From Marsupella aquatica (Eukaryota > Plantae > Marchantiophyta): a stretch of DNA of 64,000 bases. The notes beneath the pieces were generated by a model. That model had not been told where the DNA came from. It searched no databases and saw only the letters and a list, made by a program, of their open reading frames with translations. The stretch lies in assembly GCA_973895155.1 (NCBI GenBank), contig OZ316893.1, forward strand, positions 15,716,645 to 15,780,644. Direction: 5' to 3'. Shown here one piece after another: positions 1,549 through 43,502 of the stretch (its first letter is position 1; every line of letters starts with the position of its first letter). Made by a program: the position numbers and the translations under genes.

Positions 1549-3210
1549 TATCCCATAATGGAGCAGAAAGAGACAGTCTTATAACCAGTTTGGCGTACAG
1601 TCCGTGTAACCATAAAGCAAACTTACTTACAAAATTGAGTGATTTGGAAAGAATCAAAATCCCTGGAAATAAGGCCATGCATTATTGTGTAAAGAAATTT
1701 TATATTAAAGTTGTGTTTACAGGGCCTTGTGTGCCATAATGTCATGGTAACACTTCAAGTCTAAGATATTTCTACTTTCACTGATTTTAGTGACAACAAA
1801 GGAGAGCTTTTTTATGAGCTGATCCAAATCTTGTGCATCCTTCTCCAAAATTGCCCTGAAAACTGCAAAGAGAAAAACACAAAGGGCATTCAGACCAAGA
1901 AATCAGAATGGATAGGCCAATTTTTTGGTCTAATATACTAATTGTTTTTGTTTTGAGCTACACAGGTTTCTATTGATGGGGCATTGTATAGTTCCCTCCT
2001 CAAATCAATTCTTGCATTGTAGAAAGTAAGTGCCCTACAAATATTTAAAGCAAAAATTTAGAAAGTCTCCATGTTTGACACTATTTGTGCACTGTCCTAT
2101 TTAATTACAGAGATTTACCCGCACTTCTATGCACAGAGGCTTTAGGGCGGTGACTCCTCAAGAAATTCTCATTGACATGACTCCAAATGTTGCAATTTTA
2201 ATTGCACCAAGACCATCCAATTTCACACTAAGAGTCAGAGTGATCCTATCTTTGCACTTTCCTCACACCAGTATTTTCCTGTGATGTTTGACCACCTTCT
2301 CCTTAGAAAGAGTTTGGAGTCAGGTAAATCTTTTTCTGAACTCCATTTCTCTAATTTGGTTTGTACAGTCACTCAGCACATAGCTATGGGGCTCAGATAA
2401 CTACCAGTTACAAGATAGCTTGTCAGTATGGAAAGGAGATGCACCAAGACTCATTATTGGAACCTGCTCGTAGAGTTTCAGGCCCAGGAGGAAAAGGTCA
2501 AACGTTCATGTGTGTCTTGATTGGTTACAACGAACAGTTCTCAGTTTAAAATAGGTCAGGCTGTAGCAGAACGAAACGGACGTAGCTAGACCTTATAATA
2601 AGGAGCTCCTGAGAGTACCCAATTCAGGACGCATCAGTATGGCTGGTTACCGTATAAATATACGCTTTTCTGACAAGTGCGGTGGCAACATATTTCTGAA
2701 CCGTATGTAATTTTAGTGACTAGTAATTTTAGTGTAGTGAGTCACAGAGCAAGTATTACCGTGCAAGTTAGTGTTGTTCATCTGTATGATCATTTATTAC
2801 AACCCCTTCTGGGTATTGTTTTTGTTTGGAAATAATTAATAATTAATCATTTATAAATTTATAGTTTACCATCTATTTATAGTCTCATAATTAGCTTGGA
2901 TGTCTATGGACTGTGACAGGAAACAGACCATTTTACATCTAATTATGACACCACCCAACTATAAATGGATGGTAAACATTTTTGTCCCTCTAAGAACATT
3001 ATATGCATCATCTCAAAGTCAATTTGAGAATGTCAATGAAATGGAATGAAAATACACATTTCAAATCTTCTGCATCTTCGTTGCGGCAAAGTCAACCAAT
3101 TTGGAAGAAGAAACAAGGAGCCTAATCTGCACCTAAAAGATTCCTCCACCTGATTGAAGCTCAATGCCACTCTTTCACCTAGTTTATCTCTTCCTACTCA
3201 TTTGATCACC

Positions 3211-4011
3211 ATGGCCCGGAACAACATCCGATATGATAAATTTATGGGTACATCTAAAGAAGATGCAGAGTTATATTTAAAAGAATTTGAAGCATCTGCA
3301 GCTTCAAATGGACAGAATGCTGATGCAGAGAAGGCCTTAATTTTTGGAGGATTATTGAAGAGGAATGCCCAAAAATGGTATGACCGGTTTGCTAATAAGA
3401 ATGATTGGGATCAAGTTAAAAAAGCATTTTTGGAGAAATATAAGGAGGATGGTGCTTCTGCTCGGGCCTTCACTAGAATTTCTAGACTCAGAATGAAGAA
3501 ACATGGTTCGTTGCGAAAGTATGCTGATAAGTTATTAGATCTTGTGGATCAGTATAATCCAACAACTTCCAAGTCAACGGTGAAAGATTGGTATATCAAT
3601 GGGCTGCCCAAGAATCTTGGAATGTATGTTAGACGAGAAGGTGGCACTACCTTAGAAGAAGCTCAAGAGGCTGCACAGAAATATGTGGATGCAGAGGTTG
3701 CTCAGAGGAAAGGAAAAAGTTATAAGAAGACTAAAAACAAAAAGAAGAAGACAAAGAAACCAGAGTCCACTTCAACTTCACATGATGAGAATAGTAGCAC
3801 CACTAATTCTGAGGAAGAATCATCAACATCTAACACCAATTCTGACACCAATTCAAGTGAAGCCAGCTCTAGTTCTGAATCTGAAAAAGCAAAAACCAAG
3901 AAAAAGAAGCACACTGTACCAGATATTTCCACAATTTCACCAAAAGTTAAGCAAGTATACAAGTTGATTAACAAATTATCTAGTCAAGTGTCCAACTTAA
4001 TACACACTTGA
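3211..4011 (+). CDS. gag: Ty3/gypsy-type Gag (capsid domain with Lys/Ser-rich tail), no pol downstream
   Basis: KFMG..ED...YLKEFE, AQKWY, W..VKKAFLEKY, WYINGLP retrotransposon gag motifs. Homologous to the gag at 54010. ORF track 3154..4011; first ATG at 3211. Confidence 0.8.
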   Translation: MARNNIRYDKFMGTSKEDAELYLKEFEASAASNGQNADAEKALIFGGLLKRNAQKWYDRFANKNDWDQVKKAFLEKYKEDGASARAFTRISRLRMKKHGSLRKYADKLLDLVDQYNPTTSKSTVKDWYINGLPKNLGMYVRREGGTTLEEAQEAAQKYVDAEVAQRKGKSYKKTKNKKKKTKKPESTSTSHDENSSTTNSEEESSTSNTNSDTNSSEASSSSESEKAKTKKKKHTVPDISTISPKVKQVYKLINKLSSQVSNLIHT

Positions 4012-4100
4012 AACCAATGTGCATTTCAAAGGCGATTTAGTTTTGGTGGAAGACTTCAGAAAGGCTTGTGAGGGCACGGCGCAGTTTGAGGGGGGAGTTA

Positions 4101-6106
4101 TGTAATGTTGTACATTAGTTAGAAATGATGGAAATTTTATAAATTTTAAACTTTTTCTAACTCAAGGTACAATCTAGTTACCTTTTATAGCAATTTAGAT
4201 CAACTGAACACTTAACCTAATGTTATGCTTCATCGGAGGCTATTGTATTGGACAAGGATCGCGAATATAAATCCTTGCTCTTTACATGCTACCAAGAAAG
4301 AAGACTGGACATCATTGGAGAAGCAATGCAGACTAGAAGATTCAAGAACCGGCTTCCAAAACACTTTTTCAACAAGAATGAGCTTTGTATACAATTATCA
4401 CAATCAGCCGATCTCTGCTATTTTAGTTAAATAGCTAAAGTGGTCAAAAAAGTCTCATACTTTTTCAGGAGGTAGTAGTTGCGTAGTAGAATCATCCCTG
4501 CAAGTTTCATCTCAAACCGACATGTGTTTTGAAAGTTAGAATTAATTTAGTTTTACTGTTTTTTGCATAGCCGCGACTTCGCCGACGCTTTGTGAAGCGT
4601 CCCTTGTATTTGTGGACGCTTCAGAAAGCGTCCACCCAAAGACCACGACGCTTTCTGAAGCGTCCACCACCCAACCAGTTGTACTCCGATGCTCTGCAAT
4701 CCACATGAGGAGCGACGCCCACAGAAACGTCTGCTACCCCGAAGGTGACCTCGACACTGTGACGCCCACTGAAGCGTCCCGCCCGGAGCCCAGAAGACGG
4801 ACGCTGCAACCAAGCCTCAAAATTCAGCCGACGCTTTCTGAAGCGTCCATAAAAGTCCTTTGTAGTTTTGGACGCTTTCTGAAACGTCCACTATGCTCCC
4901 GACACTTAGAAACATTTTCAGTTTTCGCACTTTTATAACACCGCGCCACTTTTACCGATTTATTTGAGGCACTTAGAAGTCTCAAAAAAGTCTGAAACTT
5001 TTCCAGCATATAGACTATATGTAGTAGAGTACCCTAGAAAAGTTTCAACTCATTCCGACTCTTAGTTTAGAAGTCAAAATTAGATTAAAATCACTGTTTA
5101 TTAGTTTTACCGCAAACACCGACGCTTTGCAAAGCGTCCGCTCAAACCTCGACGCTTTCTGAAGCGTCCCCTGCATTTTTGACACTTTCAGCAGTGTCCA
5201 TTCACTTTTCAAGGATGACCGTCATTAAGTTTATTCAAGACCCTTTAGATATGAAAGGGCATGTCCTTTCAGTATCTCAATCTCCTTGGGTTCCTGCTAG
5301 CCTATATGAAGTAGAATTTGTGTCATTTTCAAGTGTGAAGAAATAAAGTAGTGCCTGTGGCATGTGCTGCAGACTGGAATCACCTTTGCTTGCAAATACA
5401 AAGGAATTCTTCTCCCTTCCTTGGTCTGAATGATTGAGAGTTTAGATCATTGAAGTAAAATTACTTGTATGAAGTTGAATCTCAGAAGTATGAGGGAATA
5501 GATTCCTTAAGTGGTGACAACCCATCTTCTTGAGTTCTTGATGCATAGTTTTTGGCATGACATTGCTTGTGCACGGATGCAAAGATTGTTACTCACCAAT
5601 TACCTGTGACTTCAATTTGATCATGATGGTGTTTATTATTCGTGACTCAGAGTACCGACTGGATATCGAAGTGATTGATTACTAGTTTCTTCTGAGTACC
5701 TTTGGAAGGAAAAGTTGAGACGTGTTGACGGCATTTTAGTAATCATCCTAGTACAGTAATCCATTCCAAAAATGTTCTTACGGATATACCACCCAAATCA
5801 CATCAAATGAAGTATTGATGAGAAGTTACCTTGGTGTTTTCCAGACTCCCTCATCATACCTCAAGATTTCATTGTGTTTTATTATTTGTTTCCATTTTAT
5901 TAATTGCATTTACAATGTTAAGCAAACATTCAAATCTATGCCTTGCTGAGCAATCATAGTAAAAGGCTCAAACCTGTGTTTTTTGTGACCTTAGTCATTC
6001 ATAAGTGTTAAACGATAGAAAATCATTCCTTTCTTGTTCTTCCATGGGATCGAATACCGAGTTTTGGACATTAAATGTTGATTTATGTCCTTAGTACAAT
6101 ACTACA
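4101..6106 (+). mobile_element. Putative 3' LTR (~2 kb) of the gag-only element
   Basis: Polypurine tract GAGGGGGGAG (4088-4097) precedes TGTAATGTTG at 4101. The end CAATACTACA (6097-6106) is an 8/10 inverted match. No matching 5' LTR is seen in the window. Confidence 0.6.
4584..5199. repeat. Cluster of about 8 palindromes GACGCTT-N4-AAGCGTC inside the LTR
   Basis: Copies near 4584, 4615, 4648, 4830, 4870, 5122, 5151 and a degenerate one near 5182. Confidence 0.75.
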
Positions 6107-8582
6107 GCTTTTGCAAGATTTCAATCGAAGGCCCCAGAGGCACTCATTGCGAGCATGATGCTTTATAGAATGGACTTTATAGTGAATTCTATCATTTTGA
6201 GGTGTTAATGACCAATGCTACATTGCAATGTAATGCCCACAAGTCCTCGTTGAGAGCTGCCATTTGGGATGCCACGAGAAATTTAGGGGTATTTACAAAC
6301 GACAGGAACCAGGAAACAGTAATAGCAAACAGTTACTGTTACCAGGAGAAATGGAAAAAAGAACATGGGATTGAGCTCCATTATTTGGTCAAGAAGTTAA
6401 AAAAACACCATCAATAAACCCCATTTTCAGTCGTTTTCAATACCACCATTCAATTGTCAAGGAAAGTAGGGGCCATTAGAATAAAGGTGTTGCTGAAAAC
6501 CGGTGATGGCCATCGCATAACGATAGTATGCCGGCAGGGAAGGGCAAAAATTTAGGTATTCATAAAATAACGACTAAGATGGAGATTCTACGCAACGTCA
6601 ATCGAGAAGAGAACAGTAAACTTAACGACCATTAGAAAAAGGCGTTGCCAAAACATGCGGATATTAGCAGCGCCCAGCGCTAGTATGCTGGAAGAGATTG
6701 TCCGTCACATCAATCGAGAAGTGAACACAGGAAACTCAATTTGAAGCATTTCCAACAAAGAGAGGCAATGGCAGACGTTGAATATTTTCAGCGATGGGCG
6801 CTACATTAAATGTTGGACCTCAAGAAATCAACGTCTAAACACGGAACACAATGACCATAGGCAGCGCTCGGCGCTAGCTCAAATCTAGGAATCAATGAAT
6901 GACCATGAAAGAACAAGAGAGCCGATCCAAAAGTGCATTCCTTAATTCCAAAATTGGTCAAAACATATAACCGGTATTACACCATCCGCAGATCATCTTC
7001 AAATCAACCCACGCCATAACATGAACATAAGCAGCGCTCGGCGCTAGCTAAAATCTAGCTATCTTAAATGTAGCCCGCCCTGGCCCGTATGTGCTTTATC
7101 TCGACCTGAGCCGCACATAACAGGGCCGCTGATCCAAAATGGGCCAAAGATGGAGCCGGAAATACATGAACTTAGAATCACCCATAGAAGAAATCCCACG
7201 GTCCAAGACGAACAAAAGCAGCGCTCGGCGCTAGCTTAAATGGAAAGCCTATGGCCACTGAAGCTTGTGTCATTGAAACCATCTCCGTCGTGATTAGCTT
7301 TAGCTCTGCGATTGGCAGTCGTCGTCGATGCCCACCCTAGCACGTCTGTGGTTTTGCTTGAAACCTAGACCCCTGAGATGCACATAAGAAGACGAGGGGC
7401 GCCGAAACTCCGAACTCTGATTCCCGGGGTCTGGAACATTTGTATCTAGGAAGTCAACACGTCCCAGTCGCTCTTGTACTCGTAGCTCAATAGGCTGAAT
7501 ACCATCAGCAGCAACGAGAGAATGAAACAAAAAACGATCAACCACTGCGAGCGGAGTGTCCCGGTTGTTAATCCAAGGTAAGTTCCTCTCCCCAGGACTA
7601 ATTGCCTCATCATAAGGAAGAGAAAAACGATTCCGGAAGGTTGAGGTCTCGCTGGATGTGTCACCATGAATGGACTCGAAGGAGCTAAAGTGACTCTCGT
7701 CCGGTCAAACTCTGGAAGGAGCAAAGAAGGCAAGCATCTCCTCCAAAGACATGATCTCCTTCTTCTCCATCTGGTGGGCACTGATAAATGCAATCGAGGG
7801 TAATGACAAGACCAGTGGTGTTGAAATGACTCGACTTCGAGAGAGGTTGTGTTTGAAATAACTTGCAAGAGTGACCCAATGGAGAGTTTAGGTTCGGAGA
7901 TCAGAAAAAACGTATCATAGAAAGGTTCAACGCAAAAAGGACCGTTGAGAAAGAGACGACTGTTCCGGTAGCGACAAATATGCGGGGCCAAGGAACGGAC
8001 GGAGGATTCAAAATTTTCAAGTAGAAAAATAGACGTTTGGGGAGCGCCCGGTGCTAGTAAGGGAAATGAGGAATTTAATCCATTTTATTATCAATGTAAT
8101 GTAAACAAATCATATCTAATATGATAAATAAATGGATTAAGATAACAGCGCCCGGCGCTCGTAAAATGTAAGCCGAAAAAACTCTTTAAGAATCGGACGA
8201 TTCCGATTCGGAGCTCTATGACCTCTCGGTAGAGACCGCCTCGTCATCTACATACTTGCTCCTACAAACGTCATCTACATAAGGATTTCGGACAAATTTT
8301 CTATCAACTCCTCTTCGTAGCCGGAGACCTTTGTTTTCCCAACAAAGAGTCCTTTGATTGTCTTCCATTCTTGCAGCATTCTCAGCGTAAGAGGGTAACA
8401 CAAATGGTTTCTCCGGAGTGACCATTTCAAAACGAGCTACCTTTCTTCTGAGTTTGAAGCGTCTTCTCGTATTCCATTCGGACCTGGGTGAGAACAGAAG
8501 TTCGTCAACCGATTGTATGAATGGATATCACAAAGGCATGAAGGAACTGGAAAGGAGAAAGAAGCTTACGAGTTTCAGAACA

Positions 8583-9941
8583 TTACTCGGAAGAGTCATC
8601 GCTGTCACTCTGGCCAGCGGATTGTTCCTGACCCTTCCCCTCAGGTGTGCCATCCTCATCTTCGTCTGCTGTACCACCACTTGACTCATCGTCAGAGTCA
8701 AAATTGAGTACAGAACGGAGCTTGTCCCTCTTTTTCTTTTCGGGTGGCTGAATTGGGGGTGGCAAAGTTTTGACTTCCTTTGGAGAAAGTAGATCTAAGA
8801 ACACCTTGGAACCAGTCTCAACGAAATCTTTCCTATTCTCCACTCCAATTACAAACCTCCCAGAATAGTCTCCAGCTACAAAAGAGCTTCCCGACCCCAC
8901 TATCCAATCCATGAAAATATCCCTAGGATGAGTGATGAGCTCAATCACAGATTGCATGAATCCAACAGACAATCGGGCGTTTCCAGCAAATTCCATCTCA
9001 GGTGTTGGATCGACTTTGAGAGAGGGAAGTCCAATTAAATTTGTTATTGAGGGATCTTCGGTGGCAGACAGAGGTCTAAACCTTGAGTCTTTTGGCACCT
9101 TCCTTTTTCAGACACTCGAGAGAAGACATCCAGCCTCAGCGTGAAGATCTGTAATATAACCCAAGCAAGGTATGTCAATGGATGCATTTGTAGACAATTT
9201 TTTAACGGCAAACCAGATGTCACGATGAGAAATTTACCTGTCGATCAGTCTTCGGCGCGTACATTGGAACTGACATGACAACATTGTGTGACGAGATGCA
9301 ATGAAACTTCTTTGAATCTTGACAAGCCGATATAACCTGAGACATCGGATCGTATTCCCCGTTATGTAAAATGGCCAGCATTCCGTCATTAGATAAAAAT
9401 GGGTCCATTCCACGAAAGAAAGATGTGGACAAAGTGTGGTCAGGGACATTCCATTTAGGAACTTTTCTGTCTAGCAGAGATGGTTTAAGTCCTGTTGGAA
9501 GGTAGATGAAACCCGCGTGGACCCCAAACGATCTCTCCTTTCCACCATGCACAATGCCCTTCTCTCGAAAGCCAGACTTCATGAGATCCTTTCCCCACTT
9601 CTCTACACCATTCACCCAGTCAGGCTTCTCCCCTTTGTTAAACGTTGAGTCGTAGAATTCTGAGATGCTAGATTCAACAAGGCAATGCCTTGAAAGAGTA
9701 CTCTTGAAGTCCCCGACTTCGCGTTGAAGACCTACAGCAGCAGCACTTTCTCGAGAAGAAGATCCACCTTCAATGGTCCTTTTTCTCTTCTTCCTTGTAC
9801 TGGTAGCATCCACCGGCACGATCGCCTTCCCTTTGTCGGTGGGAGTAATTGGATCGGATGGTGCTCCGGTATTGGCTTCTGAAGCCTCTGGGGTGGCATC
9901 TATCTTTGTATCTCCGCTCACCACGGCGTCCGACTTTCTTC
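8583..9941 (-). pseudogene. Beta-class amino (N4C/N6A) DNA methyltransferase-like domain, 2 exons, frameshifted, catalytic motif degenerate
   Basis: Motifs X-I-II in RLSVGFMQSVIELITHPRDIFMDWIVGSGSSFVAGDYSGRFVIGVE (cf. KP..L...I...T.PGD.VLDPF.GSGTT..AA...GR..IG.E). Upstream exon has FLSNDGMLAILH (motif VI-like) and AGFIYLPTG at the DPPY position. GT-AG intron 9237-9149; frameshift near 9100. Confidence 0.7.
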
Positions 9942-10180
9942 CTATTCAAATGGATGTCGACGTGATATCCGTCAATAAAGAGACAACGACAATGCTAACG
10001 CCCAGCGCTGGCCAAACTATCATAAGACTTGGCCTTAAATATACATCTTTCAGAGTAATAAATACCAATTCAGTTTCTAAAACGTTGACTCTCATAACAG
10101 CGCCTGGCACTAACAATGTGACAGATATTGACTGCCATAGCAGCGCCGGGCGCTAACCAAAGGAAACAAATTATACTTAC

Positions 10181-12385
10181 GTTTTTTCCCAGATCTTGTT
10201 GATTCACTTGGGGCCGTAGTATCTGCTTTTGCTTTGGCGCGAGGCTTCCTGCTTCAGTCAACATGAACAATTGTTGTCTCGCATATTGTTTGCAATTATG
10301 TTGTGGATTTGATCCACATCATCCGGAAGCCCCTGCTTCATGTCAGAAACAATGTTGACTTGGATCTGGGACTTAGACAGCTTATGGAAAGCATCCTTTT
10401 CTCTGTGATCAAAGGGCGAGTCCCATCTATCTGTATCCAGGTACCATGGGCAATGGGTTCTCTCCCATTCACTCAAAGGTCTTGCTGGGAAAATTCCCTC
10501 AGTAGGATACATAGAATACAATTCAACTAAAGAATTACTCTCCAATAAGACAGTCCACTTGAGGAAGGCAGCAGGATACGCCCAGAAGTAATCAGGATTG
10601 GTAGCCTCCATGTGGATGTAAAAATGGTAGAGATACCGTTTTGCTCGCTTCTGGTTCTTCAAAGAGTAATCCTCTTTGTCAGGATACTTCGAGGGCCACA
10701 TTGTATTAAAAAACTTACCCTTGACAGAGTCACCATATTTCCTAAAATCATTCGTAACTATTTCAATGAGAGATTCGAATGATTCACATGCCCAATCTTG
10801 TAAGCAATTCACGGGAATGGTTTGTTGGACCTCTCGTAGAGCACATTGCAACATCCCCACCGCAATCCCTTCTACATTATTCCATGTAATCCAAGTGTGA
10901 CACCACTGTTTGACTGGATCATCATTGACGCTATTCGGATGGAAGAATTGTCTCCGGAGCTCCGGATTGCAATGTGCTACAAGCAAAGTACTTCGTAGCT
11001 TGGCGTCAAGAGCCGAAACAGCTGTAAAAAGCCTGGGCCGGTCCATGGTACACGACACGGTATCTGGCTTCTTCTCTCGCTTATTCCTCTCCGTGACAGC
11101 ATACATCTCTGTGCACGTAGATAGAAAGTCCTCAAACTCTGGACTCAACAAAGGAGTGATTTTCGAGGTCTTAACTGCCCATTCCTTGGTTGCTTCCTTC
11201 ATCATAACGGCATGCCTTCTGGAAACCTCCTCGACCGACCAAGGGGTACCGAGGGCCGCAGCGGACTCCATGTCAATCTTGAACTGGTTCGAATACGACT
11301 TAATCTTATCCTGACATAGAATGTACAAAAGAGCCTCCTGAGGCATCTTCTTTGTGTACCAAGATCCTTTTCGCGTCTTCACCCTGATCTGCTCAAACTT
11401 CTTGTAATTTGCAGGGTCGATGAGCTTACTATAGTACTCCAGGTCGTGCATCAAGATCCGCTTAATTCGATCGGCATCTAGGATCCAGGAGGGTTCCACA
11501 ACTGCTTGTCCTAGCCTGAAATAAAAGAACGAAATGAGAACATATAAGCAGCGCCGGGCGCTCGCAAAACATGGCCTCGGAAAGTTATGCTAGAAAGAAT
11601 GAACAATTCATAATGACTCACGAAGTTCTGCACAAAAGGGTATCTTACTGGTTAACGGTGTGCATAGCCGCTTCGATTTCTATCAGCGAACCCTTGTCGC
11701 CATTGAAAACAGTACAAAGCACACGCGGGTGGTACTTTGGGTTTTCGGGACTCTCTTGAGTGACAAGAGTCCACGAGTAAAGCCTATGGTTCCTGTCAAA
11801 AACTGAGAACATTCTGTCCTTCAAAACTAGAAAATCTGGGTCGGCAACACATTCTTCCTCGAATTTCTCGTTCTCAGATGTCCATATTGGATCCCAACTC
11901 TCACGAATTTCTTGAGTACAGGTGAGAAGCGCTCCCTCAGCATCGGTAGGCTGAACGTAAAACCTCATTCCAATCGAAGAATTGTATCCCATGCTACGGA
12001 AAGAATCTTTTAGCTTGTCGATGGAAGAACTGTCTTTTTGTAGAGTTCGGACAACCTCCATATGCACCAATCAACATAGTGGAATTCGTGGAGGCTCTTT
12101 GTCAAACCCTCTGAAATCCTTCCCAAACAACATGACATGTTTCGAAATAAGATCCATCTCGGAAAATGAAACATCTTGAATCGCAAATGTGTCAAGATTC
12201 TCCATCTTCTTTCTCGCTGGTTTGGCAAACGAAATACTTGAGATTGGAACAAGCGATGCGGTGGACCTCGTTACTCGACGCGTATACACTGAACCAGAGA
12301 ATGAAGACTCAGAAGACTCGCAGTACCCACGATCCTGATCCCCAACCACACTATACCCCCTCGACGAGGAGGGGATTGCATCCAT
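10181..12385 (-). pseudogene. ParB/Srx-like N-terminal domain protein (probably the 5' part of the same gene as the MTase-like exons)
   Basis: IDKLKDSFRSMGY...FYVQP...FSVFDRNHRLYSW matches ParB boxes (L..SI...G...P; DG.HR). An in-frame TGA at 12071-12073 joins two ORFs. GT-AG intron 11648-11516 keeps the frame (VNQ|LGQAVVEPSW). A further intron 10180-9942 leads to the MTase exons; the frame is disrupted near 10260. Confidence 0.62.
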
Positions 12386-13311
12386 CGTCTTTACGATGAA
12401 AGGTGTACGAACGGAATCCTCACGACTAATTACCAGTTCTCTGTACCATATTAATAGTTGCGTCCGTATTATATCCAATCAATGAGTGCTATTCCCCTCT
12501 TTGTAATCGGTTGGAGAGACGTTACTCATTGCAAACGACAAGATTCAATTTAATTTATCAGTGACGGAAAGCGACAACTTAGAAATTGTGATAAGTATTA
12601 ATGTGAACTACGCTAAAATATTTGCGTGATAATCACGCTGAACATTAGTTACCGTTAAAAGTTACCGTTGTCTCAGCACCTTGCAGACAAACATGCAATG
12701 CCAGCGCCGGGCGCTAACGAATAAGAGACTACCAAATTGAAGAACTTATTGGTGAACAAATGCTAGCGCCCGGCGCTAGCCATTTGAATAATTTGATTAA
12801 TGTTCTTTTTAAGAAACAGATATTGTCAACAAACTCCAAAATGTACCTGTTTCACCTGTAGTAACCAAACTTTACTTAATATTATGAGATTAAGTTTATT
12901 GTATCAATACTAGCGCCTGGCGCTAGTAAAAATTTACTGTATTTGCATCAATATTTCGTATGTAATTATGCTAGCGCCAGGTGCTAGTCAGAATACTTTT
13001 CAAATTATGTCATTGTTATTCCAATGGCTTTTAGGTAGCGCCCGGTGCTAATGAAATGGAAGCACTTGTATAGACTACTATCTAGTCGTATTCATGTAAT
13101 AAATATTCCTGACACCCGCACTTGACGGGCAAAAATGACAAATGTATCATTTATGATTTCAACGGACGCAAAGTTGTGCGTGTTCTATGTCGTATTGAAA
13201 CATCTCTTTCAACGGCCGGTGGTCCTTGAAGGGTTGTTATAAGCACAAGAAATACGGTTGGGATTGGGCTATTGCATGAATTACTTCTGGCCTAAACTTC
13301 TTTCGTCTACA

Positions 13312-16300
13312 ATGTCGCGCTCAATTGTTATTACACGTGCTTGTACCCGGGAAGTCATCAAAGTTCCCGTGCAGGTTTCTGATACTTACAGGCAAGTAAG
13401 TGAGAACTATCTGTGCGGGAGATTTGATTTGAGAATCAATGACATTCTGTCGATTGTTCCTGAGGAGTCATCGAGTGGAGGACATGAACCAGCTGCGGCA
13501 TTTGATGTGGATGATGGAATACGTTTCTGGCACATGAATGTAGGACTTTGTTACACGCTTCATGTCAGACCTACTCCTCTTCAATCGGTTGTTCAGGACA
13601 TTCCGCCCCAGGTTGTTGAAATATTTGAGAGTGAAGATGAGGAAGTTGCGCCCAATCCTCCTGAGAAGCACAAAGCTCCAAGCTCTAGTTGCCTTAAGAG
13701 TGAACCGGTGGCCACTTCCGGAGATGTCCAGAAGGTTTACCGGCGGAGTGCAATGGACGCCTTACTCAAGGCCACAGGCCATAGTGAATTGTCAAGATTT
13801 ATCTCGGCAGGGGACTTTCGACACGATCAAGTTCCTTGTTTGCCAAACAAGTACAACGGAAATATTGTATTTGAATTGCCTCCCATTGTGGGAATGCAGT
13901 CCAAAGGATCTAGACTTCGTGACATGGACCGTGCCAAAGATTGTTACATTTGGACCAGGATTTTTCCGATGACCGCAAACGTGCAACCAAAAAAACACTG
14001 GGAGTTTGGTAAAGTCAGTTGTACTGGGTTCGTCGAGTGCAGGAACAAGTCCTGTGAATATTTTTAGCGAAAGAAGAGATGCAATTCTAAAGCGTGGGCT
14101 GGTACCCCTAAGCTTAGTGGTGGGTTCGCTCATTCAAGAGGGTGGTATAGTATGTCACTATTGTGAAAAGATTCCTTTTTGTGTGGACTCTTGCCCTGCT
14201 CGCTTGTTCTATATGTATCCACAGGTCCTACTTGATACAGAAACCTGTAGTCACATGTCTCGGCTCGCGGTACATATAGGTGAACATAATCATCCGAGTA
14301 TAAAAGTTTTCTCCAGGAGTGCTGAAAAGATGGCCGAGGACTTAATAAAAAGAAATCACAAAGCCAATCCTCTTGCGAAACCGGCTGGGATTTTGAATTT
14401 GGCGACTGGTTCGCTTGTGAAAGCTCTTTGCGAGAACGTTGATGACATCGTAGATATTGAAGAAACCGAAATTTGGAAGTCTCTCATGGTTCTATCTACT
14501 CCTCAGAAATTTGCGTCCCTTTGTCGCAGCGTTCGAATGGACCAGGCTGGTCGTGGTGAGTTAGATTTCCTAGCTCGAATGCAAAGGTCAAATAATATTT
14601 CTTTTCTCCAAAGGTATCTTCTTCCGGGTCAGGGTTGTTTAGCAGATCATCCCCACATATTCAAAATGTCAGTCAAGGGTCATGGATCTGGTGTAGATCT
14701 TTTACGTCAGATGCAACCTGGCGGAAGACTGGAAGGGGCTTGGGTGAGTTTTGATGTCATGAAGCGAGTGACAACCGACTGGTTTACTTCTAGCGCACAT
14801 GTTTACGATCACAACTTTCGAGCTCTTTGTACAATATTCACATGCGAACTAAAAGCTGAAGACACAGAGTCCTTTGAGAAGGCATGGAGAATTATGATAG
14901 AGGTTTGTAAGGAAAATGGGTTACATGAGGTTACCATTCAAGGTTTTATGGCCGACAATGCTCAGGCTGGATGGATTGCCATTCGCAATGTCTTTTTTGG
15001 GGGTCACCCAGACCCTGAACGTGAACGTTCTGATGCATTCCACTTTTACCAGTATTTCCATCGACATTCCACAGAGGGAGTACTCGAGGGTAGGCAACCT
15101 GAACATCTAAGACTGTGGGAGAAATTGTGAAATGCTCCATCATTCGTTGCTGCATACCGAGTTTCTAGGGAGATTGTGTTATGGTGGCAAGCAGGCAACT
15201 GTGTTCCAGGAAAATTGATGATGTTGCAGAGTTGGATATCATGGTGGGTCGTTCGATGGCGTCAGTGGGGGAATTTCATTCGCGTGGTAAGTTTTATCAA
15301 TGCTTACAATAGTCACTTCGCCATGTTTTTTACTAGTGCCTGGCGCTGCTTTAAACTGTACAGAGAACTTTTCCACATTCATGACTTATGAACACTTGAT
15401 AATACCAACATTACATTAATGTATATTATATACATTGCTAGCGCCTGGCGCTGCTTAAACAAATTGACTAAAGTTGGTCTGGATCCACTTCATTGCAGAG
15501 CAAAAGCGCAGAAGAAGGTGCCCTCATTCCAAACTGTACAGGTTCTGAGTCAAGGCACGCTTCAATGAAAGCATGGGCAACCAAAAAAATGGTGGGCCTC
15601 TTCGAAGCATGCGAAGTTGATCAAAATCGGGCTATATCTCAAGTTGCAGGTTACAGTGCATATCGGAAAGGACTCAATAGAGGGAAGGGGCCAACTATCT
15701 GGGAATTGGCATTCCGTTCGGCAGACCAAGCAGGTTCATCCAAGTTATTCGAAGAAGCCACTAACATGATTCTTTCCAACTCTGCCGATTTTGATCTGGG
15801 TAGGAATTCTCCTCTGAATGGAGATATTGTCACCAAATCGGTTAAGAGGAAGGGACTTGCAACTGGGATTGTCTCGCCACAAGACTCCCATCGGCATGAC
15901 ACCATTCTCATCACTACCCCAAATACTCGAGGATTCAAACGGAAGAATCTCAACAAGAATGAGTTCACTTCCATTCCCGCCAATGTAGTAGATCCTGTAG
16001 TAGACCTCTACGGGAGTGACACTTCAACAAGTGAAAGCAATTCCCTTGCAAACACCCCTAAAGCCACGAGGGAAACAACATCATCTCAACAACCACGCAG
16101 TGCCCCCGCTGTGGTTCAACGTTTGCCGACAGAATCAGTTCCATTGGAAATGGACGTTCCAAGCGGAAGCTGGCATTTGAGACGGACGGCCAAATATGGG
16201 GCAGGGCCACAGTGTAATGGGACCTTGCATGGAAATTCTGACAGAGATGAGTGTCAAAATTGTGTCAAGAAAATAGGGTTCCATTCTGCTGCTGGTGTTG

Positions 16301-17029
16301 TCGGCATTGTTGTCAGCGGACATCGCATTTTCAGAGGAACTCCCATTGCCGAAATGATATGGTTCTGCCCAAACAGCACATGCTACAAGAGCCGCCCGCG
16401 TCGTGGTGTTGAACGCCTTCCTCCTGTGCCGGACATTCTGCCAATTGTGAAAGGAACAAACCTCTCGCCTGGCGAGATAGAGTACCTTCAAGCGCAGGGA
16501 GTCTCTATGGTCCAAACAGCTGCGCCCTCGATCTCGAACTCGAACTGCACCATTTGCATTCGACTTGAGAATCAATGTTAACACATTTCCAGAGAAAATC
16601 AATTTTGCGGAGCCCAACGTGCGCCTTCGTAGCAGGAATGGGAGGAACTCTAGACCTCGCTCTAATCTAATTGTGGCTCATAGTAAACGAATGGAGTCGG
16701 CTCGAAAAGAAGCTAGGACTCTGGATGGAGAGTGGGATGTGATTAGTGGAATTGCTTATGGGAAACAATTCAGAATACGGACTCACGAGAACCTTCGATC
16801 GCCAAACACTTACTTTGTCCAAATGTGCATCTTCCCTACTTGTTCCTGTGAGGATTTCTTCCGTCGTCATTCCCGCGGCAAGCCGTATATGCCCTGTAAA
16901 CATTTGTACTGGGTGTTCATAAATGTCTTCAAGTTTCATGTAGAGGAGTCTACCCTGTGTAGCCAACCGATTTTGACAGTTGGAGAAGTCAGACTTGTGT
17001 TGGAGAGGCACAACGCAAATGGTTTATAG
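13312..17029 (+). pseudogene. MULE-type DDE transposase with N-terminal Cys-rich region and C-terminal SWIM zinc finger (disrupted)
   Basis: SFDVMKR, FMADNAQA..AIRNVF, DAFHF (CxxH position), then TCSCEDF...PCKHLYWV (SWIM). In-frame GT-AG intron 15287-15498. Frameshifts near 14060 and 16570; stop at 15128. Confidence 0.8.
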
Positions 17030-18867
17030 AGGGACTCGATTTATCCTTAATTGTCGTATTCCATAACGGATACTATGTTGTTTTGTCTTTAGTCAACGGA
17101 TATTACTTTAGTTTTTTATGTGGTTTTGGTTAGCGTCGGGCGCTGGTCAATAACTTATTTATAAAATTTTGTTTTTTGTGGTTAGTGCCATTGGATGGTT
17201 CCATAAGCTTTTATTATCGTCCCATTATTCTGCGTACTTAATCCTTTGTTAGCGCCTGGCGCTAGTTTCACACTCTGCCTGACAGACCCCTATGTTTCCG
17301 ATAACATAATTCAGTCTACAACTGGATTTGTGGTGGGTCCCGCCTGAGCTTACTCCATTCCTCCATGGGTTAGCCTTTTTTTAACCACACTAATGAAGTA
17401 TATGAACTAAATGAAGCATTTAAAAGTGGACTGTTTAGAAATGTTGTTATATATAAACAGTGGTGAATTGAATGACAACCCTTTTTTATCTATAATCTGA
17501 GCAAGTGACAATGGATTGGAACCTCTCCGAGCAACTGTGAGCACACTTTTCCCTTATATCTGACGTCGTGTCTTATGCCAGTAGGAATATTTTTAGCTTA
17601 AGTATGTGGTTGTTCCTTACGTGAATTTTTGAAAAACTTTGCCAAATAGTACACCTTTACAATAACAATTTCCTGTTACCAGGAGAAATTACCTGGTAAC
17701 AGGAAAACTGTTTCCTGTTTCCTGTCTCCACTGCTATACCCAGAAATTTAGTAGGAATCTCTGCGAGTGCATTAGCTTGTATGGAGGCAGTCGATCAGTT
17801 CCAAGTCATACATGATTGTCTGAAGCATGCGCCACTTTGCAATGTGACATTCCGGATTAATCGCGGGATTTTGTCTGTTCACTAGTTGGAGGTTATTTCA
17901 GCAAACACTCAATTACCGCAGTCACGTCTATGGACATAGATGCAAACTCCGCGGCAACAAGGATCTCATCGTCCTGAGCAGTCGCCACGGCTAGGCGCTT
18001 CCAGTGAGGGAGGCACCCCATATATTTCAGCCCAGTCGACTATCATTCCAGCCCCGTCTACTTTTGGTACAATCATCCCCCGCCCCTATGTGCAATACAC
18101 CATCCTCGAATCCAGCCCAGCCACCAATAACTCTATCTCAGGGCTCTTGCATAACAGGTACATCAAGTGGAGTGCCAATATCGGGCGTGCTCTAGGGTGA
18201 AGAACATGTCCATGCCGACAAAGAAATCCAGGAGGGCACTTCCATGTCTTCCATTGTTTGACGTCTAGCAGAAGCTTTTAGTGCCTCATTGGATGTGTAC
18301 TCTGGACGTAACAGATAGACAGTGTAGAATCCGCCTTAGCCAAATTTAGCTTTTGCAAGTATTATGTGTTATCACTCTGTGTTGCACCTTGTTGCAATAT
18401 AGGAAAATGCTGGATTGACTATGACTATATGATGAAATATGGGAAGTTTTTGTATTCAAAGTCTTGTTCTGTGCTTACTCTAGATTCGTACTATGCCGTG
18501 TTTACTCTACATTGTTACTCACCAACATCATTTTACTGAAATATCTAATGAAGTACAATGTCAATAATGCTGACTACACTTGTCATGCATTCATTATTCC
18601 TTAAATTTGAAGTCCCAATGATTGGCATTGTCGATCCTCGTGGTGTCGTTGATTCAGGCACCATGTGTAATTTGTATTGCAATGATTGTTTCAATGAATG
18701 GATATGAAATGATGTTGTTACGTATGCTACGAGTGAATTCAGTAACGGAATGAATGATTCCTCCTTTGTGATTAGTAATTGATTAGTGAGTATTAAATTA
18801 TTCACATGTGATTCCCCTGTTCATTGATGGTCAGTATGCATATATATATTGCAGGTGTGAAGACAAT

Positions 18868-21566
18868 ATGGCGCGAACCAAGAGCCAGGATCTTACGAAT
18901 CACCGAAACCTGATTTGGTTTACTTAATCTGCCTTCCAGCTGATTAATGTAATTTAGTTTAGTTTGACATGTACATCATGTCACTCACTCATTGGGTTTT
19001 CAGGCCGCTAACAAGAGACTCGCTCTGTGGGACAATGCCCATCGTCCGCCCACTGCAGTAGACATGGAACCAAGTGTGCGTGGTGGTCCTATGTTGGAGG
19101 CAGACGTGCCAGTGTTTCCCGCACTGCTCACAGCAGCATCTGCACCGAATGGTGGCGTCACTGAGTTGCCCTCTGTTCACTTGCAAGGGCGTCCTTCCCT
19201 CACTCCGGTGCTAGCTCTACTGGCACCATATTGCCCGTTGCCGCCTCCCTCATTGGCACCTGCCCGCAACAAGGTCACCGCAGTCACAGTAAATGCCCCA
19301 TCCAAACCAATACCAAGTAGAAGTGGGAAGAAAAGGAAATTGCTGAACCCTATTCCATCTAGCAGGTTCACTCCACGACAAGCTAAGGTTGGGGTTCAGT
19401 ATAATGAACAGCCCCGATTTACCAAACAAAAAGCTCGAACAAAAGGCAAGGCAGAAGTCAAATATGTAGACACAGATGCATCCAACAGTGATGCAAAGGA
19501 GTCTGATCCAGCCCCCAAGACAGGGGCTCGCACTGGCTGCCGCGATCTCCAGACCTACTGTCTCCAGGGGGACTTTGGACCAGAAGCCTTCACATGTGTG
19601 TCGATGTGCAGCATTGCCCGAACCATGTGCCAACTGCAAATTTGTAAGAAGGGATCCACACTTCATGTTTGTACGTGAATTATGAGTTATTTACGTGAGT
19701 TATCTACAATTGCAACTGTGTAGTGGTATTGACCATTGCTTTCTTACACTTGTGAACAGGAATGAGCAGTCACATGCAAGGCTAAAGAGGGAGTTCATTT
19801 CTCTCGATACTTTAATGGCGTTGTGTGCAAGATGTTGCCTTGTAAGAATGTGCCTTTCAAAAACCTTCGCACATACGGTTGCCATGTTTTCAAGAAGCAT
19901 GGTCTGATTAGTGAAGGGACCCCTCGGTCACTGTATACTAAAGACGTTGTTGCTGTGAGGCAAGGAATTTTGCACGACGGAAGCAGCTAGGGGCTGAATG
20001 CTTGCCCAATTACTACAACGTGAGAGGGACATTGAGACAATGTTGGAGCATGGCCAAAAGAGGGGTGAAGTATGTGCCTTTCTACGTTGAACGCTTCACT
20101 CACCACAGTCACTGTGTTTTTCAAAAGCAATTGATCTGTCCCATCCAACATCTGACCATGCACGGTGGCTTACTGTATGTCTGTGTTGGAGGGCAACGAC
20201 TCAGAGCAAGTTTGTCACCCGGTTTGAACAAAACCATTTACAGAACCCCTCACCAACAGTTCCATCTCAAAACATGTTCTTAATTTTCTTTCAATTTATA
20301 ATGCCCAAACTTGACTTCCACGTGTGGGATAGTCTGACCAATGATCGTGACTGGGCTCGCTTGCAGGCCTTGGTTTTGCAATGCCCAAATTCACCATATG
20401 TATTGTCGTGGACCAGCAGAGCCTTGTCTGATATTAAAGGTAGTGCATTTGCAGAATTAGATGAGTTTCAAAGTGGAAGACTCATCCAAAGTGCTACAGT
20501 AGTGAGGAATTTCTTTGAACCAGTTGATGCATCAATTGATTCTGTTGAAATCCATGATGCCATGGCACTGCAACGGGCAGACCTGTGTAATGATGCTCTG
20601 AACTGGATGCGTACCAAGCGCGACAGTCTACTATGGGAAGAGGAGCATGGCTGGCCACGATTTCAGACTTAGGGCAAGAAGGAGTATGCAATTTGAAAGG
20701 CAGATCGTAAGCCCAAGGCGGTTCAGCCTTACATACCCAACATCGTGGCCATGTATAAGAAGTTGAACTCCTATAGTGATGATGTTGCAATGAAGAAGGT
20801 AATTTGATGAACAACCACTACTAAAATGAGTTGGTCATGCATTACCGCGATGTTCATTGTACTGTAATGTGTTGAAACACAAACCTGTTCAATTTCAATT
20901 AATCAAACCTTAATGTGTGAAATTGGCCATTACCGTGCAGGTTCAAGCGAAGGCAGAGTGGACTAACACCTCAGATGAGGAGCCCATTGAAGAGTCCGAT
21001 GCTGAACGGAAGGATGAAGAACGTTGTCTAGATGAAGATGCCGCTGAATTGTTCCCAGATTTGGCATGCCAGATGCTTGCCAACGAGCCTCAAATAAATT
21101 TTAGGTGGGTCACCAATGACGACCTTCCATCACATGGTGCAATCCCGGACGCCCCTCCAGTAAAAATTATTGCGGATCCATTGCTACAGGCCTCCACATC
21201 TAATGTTGGAAGTCCGTCACGCCATGCCAGTGTACATGTTCTACCTACCGTGGTGGAACCCAAAGCAAATACAACACCTCTGTTATATTTCCGACCAAAA
21301 ACAATGGACTCATTGCAGATGTTGTGGAAGATGACGATGTTCCAAGCCGAGGTGCTTTCTCCCCCAACCAAACGGAAGCAATCCTTGCATCCCAAGAATT
21401 CTCACAAGCGTACAAGAGGTTCACACCATTGACGGACATAATGGAATGAATTACTTTCTTGTCTTCTCAAACCGTAGAGCTGCAGAAAGTTGTTGCTCGA
21501 TTGAATAGCCCAACCGCGTCTGTCAATGATGCTCCATTTGGTTCGGATGACGATGATCTAGTGTAG
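18868..21566 (+). pseudogene. Degenerate multi-exon gene of unknown function, probably an accessory gene of the adjacent MULE
   Basis: Fragmented ORFs 18992-19678, 20274-20672, 20917-21432 with splice-acceptor-like sites. Pro/Lys-rich region and a C2H2-like segment CKMLPC...F...H.FKKH near 19820-19900. Convergent with the transposase. Confidence 0.35.
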
Positions 21567-24500
21567 GCTGTTAGAATATGAACAGTGAGTACACAACTTT
21601 ACAAGAGACATGAAAGACCGTGTGACTTTAGGGACCAAATTTTCTTTCGGGTTGAGCCTGTTTTGATTAGTTTGTAAAGGACTACATATATGTGGTCCTT
21701 TATGTTGTTTAGGGCCTGCCATTTTGAAGTCAACCATTTGTAGTTTGGAAGGCCAATTTGTGAAGCAACCTCGGATAAATAAATGAACGTTTTTTGTTCA
21801 GCGCTCTCTGAATTTTTCTAGCGGTTCTATGCACATGGAAGGCCGTTCGGGGAATGTGTAGTATGATACATTCACCTTTTCAGGGGAATGTATGTTCTAT
21901 ACCTCTGTTTATATTGTCATCTGAGTACAAGAACTAGTGGACACTCTATTCATGATTCGTTCCAACCTCTTTAACATTCTTAAAGTACTAGCATGCGTGT
22001 CTTTGTTGTGTCTTTGCCATTCATTCATTACACCTTGTGGACATAAACAATATAAGAAGCACCATGTTGTCCATGTTTTCCATTGAAGTCCAAATATTGG
22101 CATGATAGTACTGGGGCAAACATTTGGACCACATTGTTAATATATTCAATGTACTACAAATGTTTGGAATAATGTTTCAATATAGGACCCGATCCTAAAC
22201 CCCCTTCCCACCCTGGCAAACTCAGACATGTGAACTATGAACATTGAACTATGAACTATTCATCCACAATGGAGACTATATTCTCTTCTATAGTTGTCGT
22301 TGCATTGGAGTCACTTGCGCATCCTGTGGAGAAGGCACGTAAAATGTCTGGAAAGTTGGGCGACATAGCCCAAGTTTGGCTTGAGCCAATTTGGATATTT
22401 CCAATGACATCCATGCTGGCCTGGCTCGGAGGCAATTTCAGTACGCCGGATTTGGATGCCTGGTTAATTACGTTGGTAAGTGAAAACTATGGGGCTGCTC
22501 AATTTTTTGTCCTCCGCATTGCCTTTGACGCCAAGGGCTTCATACATTCTCCCTTTGCCCTAGTACCAGCCTGGTCTGTGATGGCAAGGCACATGTCGGC
22601 AAGGGCGTCTACAAATTCCTTGTCGAATTTGGCTTGGAATGATAATGCCTTTTCCTTTTTTTTAATGCGCAGCTTCTCAGGTGCGTTTGGCCCGCTCACC
22701 AAATTCCGTGGGTCACCCGGAGGATACGGATTGACATTTTCTTTGTTGGACCCTACCGGAACTTTCCCCCTTGCGGTTGCATTTGCCTTTCGCACCCATC
22801 AATTTATCTACCCAGCCGCGTCTGGCAACAGTCGTCCTGTCACTCCCTTCAGCAGGAGTGATTGGTTCATGTGCTGACTGTACCTCCAGCCTTGCAACAT
22901 TTTGTTGTGCCTCTCTGGTGAAGAGAGACTCCATCCAATGCTTGAGCTCAATCAGACCTTGTTTGGCAAGAGTCAGGTGATATGCAATTTGATTGTAACA
23001 TGTGGTAACAATGGCTTGAAATTCCTCCATGGGTGCAGTTCTAAGGCCGCGTAACCTGGCTTGCGTCATCTGTTGGTTGTTCCCACCTATCCTCATCCTC
23101 ATCCGGATATGTGATATTGATATTCCCAACCTCACAAGCCAACTTTGGGCATTCCCCATGCATCCGTTTGAAATGGTGGTCGAGGCCACCCAAAAATGAT
23201 CCCATCTTTGTTTTGTGTTGATGCAGGACCTCCAACTCCGTCATCTTCTTTGTAACCAGCAGAACTTTTATCTACATGTCAATCGTACGGAAACTTAAGG
23301 TTAAGCTAGAGGCGTCAAAAATTTGTAGGAGCAAGTCCTTCAGGATCAATTATATATAAAGCAGTTTGGAAGAAGCAGAAACTGAATGGAATTACCTGAT
23401 GTTTGCATGCATTCCCTTGAAGTGATTACCCACATGTGCATTCACAACTGTCTTTGTCCCAGTCGATGACAAGATGTTCCTTGGTGCTGGGATTGTTTGA
23501 GGAAGTGCTTCTAACACATGCACACTTGGCCAGCCCACACTGAAATGTTTGCACATAATCATCTGGGATTGTCTTGGCTCTACTGAGGGACTTATGCACA
23601 AGGCCTTCTATCGTTCTGTTTCTGATTTGCCCCTGGAATTTGTCAACAGCAATACACCAATAGTGATTCTTGATAACTCTCAAGTGACCAAGTAGCCAAG
23701 GAAGCGACCATCCCGTAATGTTGTACCTACCCGCCTTCAACTCCATCTTGAGGGTGTGGTGCCAGCGTTTGATGCCCCCATTTGTAATCTGGTTTGCATG
23801 ATTGTACCCTCTGAACTGTACTGCCCAATTGGCAACCTTGTTATGCCACTCCTGTTTGTAATATGCAACAAATACCGGTTGCCTTGGGTAAGTTGCCATC
23901 GATCTATAAAAGCTTGGGACTCTTCAGTCATGTTTGCCAAGTAATGTACACGATATTAGCATTTGGAATTCCAAATAAATCCACATTGCCAAACTACTGT
24001 TGTACAACCAACACATTACAAGCACAGGTCCAACATAATACAAGCAGACAACCAATAGATTAGAAGCAATGATAGAGTTCTCACCACTTCCATCTGGGCT
24101 TGCATGACAATACATGAGAGCGCCCAGATCTGCATTGATCTGGGCTTTGGCAAAGGGGTAGAAAACCTTTGAGATTATGTTTTTGGTCCAGGCTCTTTGA
24201 ACGTGCCAAGTGCAAAATGTTATAGGAACTTTGGGGAAAACCTGTCTGTATAGATAACACATTTGCATGAGAATAAATTTGATGGCATGCATTTCATATG
24301 AAAGACTGCAGCGGTGACAAAAAATGATATGATATACAGTATACCTGATTGCTGCTTGTTCCTCGTCCGCTACATCAATAATCCAACAGGTAGGTGTCCA
24401 CGAAACTTGCAAATTCAATTTTGTCCTCTTGGCATTCACGCAGTCTTTCACAACTGGGAGGACTTGGCTAGCTTGTAGGGCTTTGTACATTTGCAGAAGA

Positions 24501-24790
24501 GCAAATGCTACGGGAATGGCATTTTGAAATTTGTCATACACAACAACTGTGTAGAAAGGGAACTGCCAATGGAAAACAAAACAAAACTTAAAAGTGTCAT
24601 GGTATATACAGTACATTTGAAGCAAGTACAAAATTGTCTGCAACAATGACCAAAACTTCTAAATGGCAATACAAGGAATTGCAAATAAGGTACAGTAAAT
24701 GCATAGCTTACTCCAAAGTGGTTGGTACCAAAAGTTGCATCAAATGCTACGGGTCCATCATGACCAAGAAGCGATAGCTTCTTTTGCTGC

Positions 24791-26283: not shown

Positions 26284-26721
26284 TGCACCCCCCCTTAAAA
26301 ATGGTCACGTCCGCGTGACCTAAGTAGTGTTCCAACACGCCTAGACCACTTTGGGCCTTAAATTTTTTTTTATGAGGTAACAAATGGTTTGCCCATAAGG
26401 CTGATGCAAACCATTGGTATGCGCATTCCAAACTTAGGAAATTCCAATCTATCCCACTTATCCAAGTAGGATGGCAGTCCAAACGGGTAAGCTAACTCCA
26501 AACTCGTCGGACCCATTGTCCTCCCCTTGGGGTGCTCCCCTTTGGTTTGAACTAGCCCGCCCACAGATGTAGGGCGGGCACCATCAACTTCCACTTGCAA
26601 AAAGCAAATTGGCCGCCCAACAACCTCTAGCACCAACGCAATCCGACTTTATCCTTAAGAGGCCGAGAGGAGTGAAACTAGGATACAACTCACAAAGGTA
26701 GCTACAGCTGCCTGTACCAGT

Positions 26722-31860: not shown

Positions 31861-31991
31861 GTCCCCAGCGACCGAATCTACTCGCAGTCAACCCGCCGGG
31901 CACGTTGAAGCACTAAGTCCCCGCAAAAATCTGTTAAGATTTTTGGATTCCGACTTAGCACAACCCCGGCCCGCTGTCTATGCCAACAATC

Positions 31992-32000
31992 GCTCTGATA
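31992..32000 (-). promoter_or_regulatory. Partial tRNA-iMet primer binding site TATCAGAGC
   Basis: Minus strand reads LTR end ...CCACCACT|TGTCA TATCAGAGC; the canonical plant PBS is TGGTATCAGAGC. Confidence 0.6.
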
Positions 32001-32005
32001 TGACA

Positions 32006-43149: not shown

Positions 43150-43319
43150 CGCCCCCCTAACTGGCGGTTAGGTCCCTCTAACTCCCAGGTAGCGCTATCC
43201 ATCTACTACATGCTATACACCTTCGTGGGTGCACGGATCAGAAGGTCGGGTGCTATGTTGCCCCATCGTTAATTGCCCATCTGCAATCCATACCATGTGA
43301 AGATCAAGTCATCCACCTC

Positions 43320-43470: not shown

Positions 43471-43502
43471 GCTAGCACGTATCACTGCCAAGCTGGGGTC
43501 CA

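Follow-up and report, generated by a model that had tools for sequence, protein, structure and literature searches.

We analysed a stretch of 64,000 nucleotides from the liverwort Marsupella aquatica (contig OZ316893.1 of assembly GCA_973895155.1, positions 15,716,645 to 15,780,644 of the forward strand), which is called the window here. It contains a Mutator-like DNA transposon with two divergent genes, one for a transposase and one for an accessory (cargo) protein that is predicted to join a ParB-type fold to a methyltransferase-like domain. The non-coding DNA of this element carries about 20 copies of a palindrome, AGCGCCNGGCGCT, and this feature is real and well-defined. An earlier note on the same DNA (the original prediction) took the palindromes for a self-recognition code read by the cargo protein. 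We find this idea plausible; comparable systems have been proposed before, and we found no experimental test of one in the open literature.

A de novo scan showed that AGCGCCNGGCGCT is the commonest perfect arm-6 palindrome in the window. At one mismatch or fewer it has 18 matches (8 exact), all within 6669-17263; 100 dinucleotide shuffles of the window gave a mean of 0.02 such matches and no more than 1 in any shuffle. Relaxing the limit to two mismatches raises the count to 21, with 20 sites in the element and a single one elsewhere, at 34567. The conserved unit extends beyond 13 bp and reads RNY-AGCGCC-N-GGCGCT-RNY, with matches at position ±7 in 37 of 40 half-sites and at ±9 in 38 of 40. 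As had been claimed, a perfect 19-bp copy is found at 12762-12780. The centre base is free (C in 9 sites, G in 5, T in 5, and A in 1). Departures from the motif are C>T or G>A in 13 of 14 cases, and the motif CpGs are intact in 35 of 40.

All 20 sites in the element are in non-coding DNA (4,219 bases) and none is in the 7,236 coding bases that are supported by homology. The distribution over three introns and the divergent region agrees with the original prediction, with one site in cargo intron 1, three in cargo intron 2, two in the transposase intron, and five in the divergent spacer; a further seven are in the left arm and two in the right arm (Table 1). Sites in both arms had been described as subterminal. 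Both arms do hold sites, but the outermost of them are 382 bp (left) and 478 bp (right) in from the ends, clear of the terminal inverted repeats (TIRs), and 13 of the 20 sites are more than 1.5 kb from either end. The division between coding and non-coding DNA has P = 2e-9 if sites are independent and uniformly placed, a value that overstates the evidence because some sites are tandem duplicates (6863, 7033, and 7220). Most sites have only the motif of about 19 bp in common, with unrelated flanks, and they are spread over six separate compartments. Some contig joints turn back over motif-bearing segments, a weak hint that the number of palindrome units varies among copies of the element.

Two other roles for the palindromes are not favoured. 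Of four intron pieces that were folded as RNA, three were unremarkable and one stood out (z -3.6) because two motif copies pair with each other. A splice signal fits poorly with distances to splice sites that range from 26 to 200 nt and with 14 of the 20 sites being outside identified introns.

Table 1. Features of the Mutator-like element, in window coordinates (ORF, open reading frame; SAM, S-adenosylmethionine; TSD, target-site duplication).
Feature	Positions	Strand	Remarks
Left 10-bp TSD	6277..6286		Sequence same as 17742..17751
Mutator-like DNA transposon	6287..17741		11,455 bp; two divergent genes; decayed copy of a multi-copy family
Left TIR, imperfect	6287..6350	+	Own short repeats (CAGGAA-type, GTTACCAGG); from TIR alignment and repeat positions
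Five left-arm palindromes	6669..7232		6669, 6790, 6863, 7033, 7220; last three in duplicated units of ~170-190 bp
Two palindromes just 3' of cargo tail ORF	8043..8159		8043, 8147
Tail ORF	8219..8527	-	Like C-terminus of Riccia cargo models; BLASTP to P0113: 18/55 identical, E 0.002
Cargo exon 4	8583..9148	-	SAM-binding (motif I) half of methyltransferase-like domain and acidic tail; E 2e-10 to P0103
Cargo intron 3	9149..9237	-	89 nt; palindrome-free
Cargo exon 3	9238..9941	-	Linker and first half of methyltransferase-like domain; degenerate motif IV
Cargo intron 2	9942..10180	-	Three palindromes (9997, 10099, 10142)
Cargo exon 2	10181..11515	-	All-helical; putative ParB-type DNA-binding domain with large insertion; frameshift near 10308
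Cargo intron 1	11516..11648	-	One exact palindrome (11550); same intron in related locus L001 has a different palindrome array
Cargo exon 1	11649..12385	-	Predicted ParB/Srx-fold domain; premature stop at codon 105; DRNHR, family DGNHR
Divergent spacer	12386..13275		Five palindromes (12703, 12765, 12912, 12973, 13037)
Transposase exon 1	13276..15286	+	Cys/His zinc region; DDE core (FDVM, ADNA, DxFH)
Transposase intron	15287..15498	+	Two palindromes (15335, 15440)
Transposase exon 2	15499..17029	+	Candidate catalytic E (ESRH); C-terminal SWIM-like finger
Two right-arm palindromes	17132..17263		17132, 17251
Right TIR, imperfect	17669..17741	-	Same short repeats as left TIR
Right 10-bp TSD	17742..17751

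MULE (Mutator-like element) transposases are DDE enzymes with a [C/D]xxH motif after the second Asp. The first Asp, ADNA, and DxFH are present in all eight aligned transposase rows. Seven relatives are 37-56% identical to the window transposase; the zinc region is conserved in all seven and relatives' ORFs also read off at the intron position, 15287. In the window gene, exon 1 loses its frame near 14065-14100 and meets a stop at 15128, and exon 2 loses its frame near 16500-16580. The MULE model PF10551 had no Pfam match to the window transposase or the seven relatives, and the SWIM match (E 0.12) is below the cut-off. In the ESM Atlas the top clusters for relative P0135 are MULE at 0.85-0.86, which we use as a lead only. 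The element starts with GGGTAT at both ends and has short imperfect TIRs of the Mutator/MULE kind, and its TSD is within the 8-11-bp range of Mutator elements and MULEs (PMC6446971). We assign the element as Mutator-like because of the TSD length, the transposase features, and the ESM Atlas lead. The short repeats in the TIRs bear no relation to the palindrome and are likely end sites for the transposase.

Contigs of graded identity align to the element in their thousands (2,954 from run X1 and 3,545 from run X2), which indicates a multi-copy family; the flank is itself repeated. Contigs of runs X1, X2, and X6 join across the element, skipping 11,465 bases that correspond to the element and one TSD. 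There were about 2,800 differences between contigs and window, of which the 40 best supported were listed. Stops and frameshifts are present in both genes. The window copy is dead and its palindromes could be read in trans only. A GC-richer, palindrome-free stretch of 800 bp at 7245..8040, covered by a diverged X6 contig and with no Pfam match, may be what is left of another exon or of a third gene.

The cargo gene has four exons on the minus strand that match, part by part, one Riccia sorocarpa protein of 1,207 amino acids (aa). Exon 1 is 35% identical to the N-terminal region of relative P0103 (E 1e-25), and exon 2 has 99 relatives among cluster representatives. Among the 20 clusters that were looked up, every one with a species name is from a liverwort (Riccia or Calypogeia), and a further search returned 29 Riccia proteins; by themselves these kinships would make the host probably a bryophyte. 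Cargo genes in Riccia sorocarpa and Calypogeia fissa include R1sor_027256 and R1sor_007218. The tail ORF shares RNP[YF]VDD with the C-terminus of Riccia models P0031 and P0113; from this similarity it is a probable extra cargo exon or small gene. Neither a ParB domain nor a helix-turn-helix was detected in the cargo by Pfam or NCBIfam. The nearest ESM Atlas clusters to P0031 are fungal DUF3723 at 0.79-0.80, which is chance level and a lead only, and a literature search found no paper with DUF3723 and ParB together.

To compare structures we used an AlphaFold2 model of relative P0105 with a mean predicted local distance difference test (pLDDT) score of 74. In a wide search its four best matches were ParB/Srx folds: KorB at Z 6.9 with a root mean square deviation (rmsd) of 2.8 over 95 aligned residues, PadC at 6.4, ParB-N at 6.3, and Srx (sulfiredoxin) at 5.5. 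In a second search the top 11 matches were ParB, Noc, and KorB proteins (Z 6.3-8.2; rmsd 2.5 over 96-99 residues). Foldseek gave no match at E<=0.001 for P0105 or a model of exon 2, and ranked ParB and Noc first for P0105 at E 0.3; solved structures searched by sequence yielded no match to exon 1 and, for the profiles, low-complexity or chance matches only. We predict from these models that the N-terminal domain has a ParB/Srx fold. The family has the GxxR phosphate box of this fold as a GNHR box (G in 29, N in 30, H in 26, and R in 28 of 30 aligned rows), with R in place of G in the dead window copy. Several whole chains of ParB and Noc that include the N-terminal and DNA-binding domains align colinearly on P0105 residues 25-395 with rmsd 10-15 Å. 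The SopB DNA-binding domain aligns over 111 of 115 residues at Z 4.2, which is within noise. The 13 element ORFs that were scanned had no match to the ParA family. The predicted folds of a relative and the part-by-part homology thus support the claim in the original prediction that the element encodes a ParB-fold and methyltransferase-like protein.

The C-terminal domain is predicted to have a beta-class methyltransferase-like fold. In P0103 motif IV comes before motif I (DLPTG near 964 and DFAGGWG near 1131), which is the beta-class order, and the P0105 model matches the beta-class enzymes MboIIa and M.BceJIV at Z about 4. The PF01555 matches (E 5e-5 to 1e-5, and E 7e-5 for exon 4 of the window copy, which has a frameshift near 9101) are below the cut-off. 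The motif-IV Asp is kept in 19 of 22 rows and the Pro in 20 of 21. However, (D/N/S)PP(Y/F/W) occurs in none of 145 fetched proteins, many of which are fragments short of this domain, whereas 19 carry D[LMI]P[TS][GH]; the window copy has YLPTG as compared to D[LMI]P[TS]G in relatives. By contrast, liverworts do have writers of N4-methylcytosine (4mC), and Marchantia DN4MT1 is described as retaining TSPPY. From these alignments the cargo domain is likely a pseudo-enzyme. The original prediction had linked a CCNGG core in the palindrome to CCWGG and CCSGG targets of N4-cytosine (N4C) methyltransferases. Methylation at CCNGG is unsupported because the catalytic motif IV is lost across the family. 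In addition, the centre base is free, which makes the core specifically neither CCWGG nor CCSGG, and in the element 6 of 24 CCWGG sites and 7 of 13 CCSGG sites are inside motifs, that is, mostly outside or evenly split.

Related loci were sought in three kinds of contig. Viral contigs (with cargo or transposase queries) and genome contigs gave none, and among 155 candidate stretches from metagenome contigs there was one, L001, a single contig of 1.9 kb. Its product is 44% identical to the window cargo, with DGNHR intact and an intron at the same position. This 818-bp intron holds all 12 of the AAGCC-N4-GGCTT sites found at one mismatch or fewer, and the exons hold none. Shuffles gave a mean of 0.11 and a maximum of 2 such sites, and across 40 shuffled introns the most frequent family reached 3 copies. 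Part of the array is tandem. This motif has no fixed CCNGG core. At one mismatch or fewer L001 has no copy of the window motif; at two mismatches it has two. That a related element carries another palindrome in the same intron suggests that the palindromes are likely family-specific landing sites, each for its own family's protein. The single comparison, of two families, fits the co-variation of protein and motif that had been anticipated.

The explanation that we favour, with somewhat less than even confidence, is that the palindromes are operator-like sites for the element's own ParB-fold cargo protein, which would act as a dimer and probably hold the element's chromatin open while not itself methylating DNA. 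That the cargo protein binds the motif is, in our estimate, probable, and anti-silencing without catalysis takes the largest share of this probability. Starting from the observed element, motif placement, gene structure, and loss of the catalytic motif, and from the predicted folds, we infer the following steps. A dimeric cargo protein would recognise the palindrome of its own family, with one half-site per subunit held by a ParB-type helical domain; the symmetry of the palindrome suits a dimer. By analogy with KorB and its scattered operators, the GNHR box may bind a nucleotide and thereby allow the protein to form a clamp that slides away from its sites. The pseudo-methyltransferase domain would be a scaffold or reader and not a writer. 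The outcome would be family-specific anti-silencing, which is the role of VANC in VANDAL elements, carried out by an unrelated protein. The palindrome and the protein would change together over evolution, leaving each family with a palindrome of its own. A bolder version, in which a nucleotide-gated ParB clamp loads at family-specific intron palindromes, slides over land-plant Mutator elements, and strips or blocks silencing, has a low probability in our estimate. If true, eukaryotes would have a load-and-spread system in which protein and palindrome form a co-evolving code, and it would recur in plants, algae, and perhaps fungi.

Several points weigh against the favoured explanation. The family sequence GNHR[VL][IT] has neither the Glu nor the last Arg of the canonical G(E/A)RRxR box, which is GERRxR in ParB and KorB (PMC11790492). 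In a survey of ParB-fold proteins, 17 of 28 purified proteins showed no binding of nucleoside triphosphates (NTPs) while others bound various NTPs, and nucleotide choice could not be predicted from sequence. The model of exon 2 (pLDDT 94), used alone, matched nothing but generic helices, with no ParB-type domain, and sequence profiles found no ParB-type DNA-binding domain; such a domain in exon 2 is weakly supported by the models. The co-variation comes from one 1.9-kb contig, whose array may be an insertion with no link to the cargo; the transposases of the two families differ as well, so that the change of motif could track the transposase. Controls inside the window disagree: a second Mutator-like element that lacks a cargo homologue also lacks an array, which speaks for the favoured explanation, but an apparent long terminal repeat (LTR) has a palindrome array at 4584-5198 and no ParB cargo close to it. 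That the effect is activation as opposed to repression is taken by analogy from VANC.

The closest functional parallel is VANC, whose motifs are in introns, intergenic, and terminal non-coding DNA and differ between families (PMC5735166). The palindrome sits in comparable places (introns, spacers, and ends), as the original prediction had it, and in both systems an accessory gene on a Mutator-like element goes with a short, apparently family-specific non-coding motif, seen here in two families. VANC differs in that its motifs are asymmetric 8-9-mers for which binding and demethylation have been shown, whereas here the candidate sites are palindromes of 13-19 bp and the protein has a predicted ParB fold. 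No VANC-type Pfam family was among the matches of the cargo parts, and no direct comparison with VANC was made. In one account VANC is the only transposon accessory protein said to bind and modify its own element (bioRxiv 10.1101/2025.02.11.637652). A second parallel is with KorB and its operator OB on plasmid RK2 and with ParB/parS (PMC11790492), which share a ParB fold and a 13-bp odd-centred palindromic operator with the window system as predicted. Action at a distance from the site, which we count as a likeness, is only proposed here. Unlike these systems, the element has no ParA partner, GNHR in place of G(E/A)RRxR, a large helical insertion, a methyltransferase-like C-terminus, and a context of eukaryotic chromatin.

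Published work on red- and brown-algal transposons already puts forward self-binding by such cargo (Bostrychia PAG3 and Ectocarpus Sola1-1). In Ectocarpus, Sola1-1_Ec32 encodes a 1,104-aa protein with ParB and N4C or N6-adenine (N6A) methyltransferase domains opposite the Sola1 transposase, with self-binding and modification proposed (PMC12477816). By its description this resembles the window element in having a ParB and amino-methyltransferase fusion of about 1,100-1,200 aa on the strand opposite the transposase; it differs in being a brown-algal Sola1 as compared to a Mutator of land-plant type with a degenerate motif IV. The passages on Sola1-1_Ec32 name no cis motif. In red algae including Bostrychia, Plavaka elements carry the accessory genes PAG2 and PAG3; the ParB-like PAG3 adjoins tandem inverted repeats and self-binding is proposed; a ParB-like accessory of this type is also on Mutator elements in Chondrus (bioRxiv 10.1101/2025.02.11.637652). 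As described, PAG3 is alike in pairing a ParB-like accessory protein with inverted-repeat units in the element. However, PAG3 is fused to a 2-oxoglutarate (2OG) oxygenase, with the methylase in a separate gene with SET, whereas here the ParB fold is fused to a probable pseudo-methyltransferase; the PAG3 repeats are tandem arrays beside the gene, whereas those of the window element are scattered over introns, spacer, and arms. Other papers describe transposon cargo of other types (PMC12730594; PMC4738411). In the open literature that we searched, neither an example from a land-plant Mutator element nor a test by experiment turned up. For the algal ParB-methyltransferase cargo the same role was proposed with no defined site, and the window locus supplies a sharp candidate site. 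L001 supplies a second, different candidate site, so that cognate and non-cognate sites could be swapped, and near-intact cargo relatives are annotated in Riccia. If binding is true, it would be a case of a ParB-type DNA reader at work in a eukaryotic nucleus and could give sequence-specific tools for anti-silencing.

Among the alternatives, the one that survives best is that the transposase, through its N-terminal Cys/His zinc domain, binds the palindromes for synapsis or self-activation while the cargo does another job. According to published accounts a Mutator transposase can attach to DNA and switch on cognate copies, the conservation of the zinc region in seven relatives is consistent with this, and the change of motif in L001 could follow the transposase equally well. 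We nonetheless consider it unlikely. The palindromes are well inside the ends, whereas the TIRs have none of them and hold their own repeats; AtMu1 transposase binding, as described, peaks at the TIRs. The many sites far from either end, in introns and spacers, do not fit it well either, and another Mutator-like element in the window, at ~18900-24700, has no cargo homologue and no palindrome array. This second element is decayed and on the minus strand, with a MULE match at E 0.004 and a SWIM-like tail, and its region has plus-strand ORFs of no known kind.

Quite unlikely, in our view, is that the cargo binds the palindromes but represses, limiting copy number by KorB-like autoregulation of the divergent promoters. 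No fold scored higher than KorB in the wide search, KorB silences from 13-bp odd-centred operators (TTTAGCGGCTAAA; PMC11790492), and five sites crowd the divergent promoter region. However, an element-wide effect on chromatin would account better than occlusion of promoters for sites in introns and the 3' arms, the element shows no sign of a KorA-like partner, and likeness of fold does not tell the direction of an effect.

Less likely again is that the palindromes are tied to neither protein and are host transcription-factor or chromatin sites, or neutral local duplicates. The LTR at ~4100-6105 (about 2 kb, TG...CA) supports this with ten palindromes like GACGCT-N6-AGCGTC, as do the tandem duplicates among the element's sites, and coding constraint alone would exclude motifs from exons. 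This LTR follows a purine tract and a gag-like ORF at ~3210-4010. On the other hand, most sites have unrelated flanks and are spread over six compartments, the motif CpGs are mostly intact even though nearly all departures are C>T or G>A, RNA folding offers little beyond the pairing of two copies, and one would expect a fixed host site to stay the same between related families. Least probable is the CCNGG idea of the original prediction, that the cargo is an active N4C/N6A methyltransferase writing a self mark at or around the motif; for all the beta-class features of the domain and the 4mC writers of liverworts, the degenerate motif IV, the scatter of CCWGG and CCSGG sites, and the L001 motif argue against it.

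Elsewhere in the window, nested LTR retrotransposons with gag/pol ORFs are at ~24800-33500 and 42100-60900, and their LTR pairs are 95-98% identical. A degenerate tandem array with a pyrimidine-rich unit of about 19 bp is found at 814-1520.

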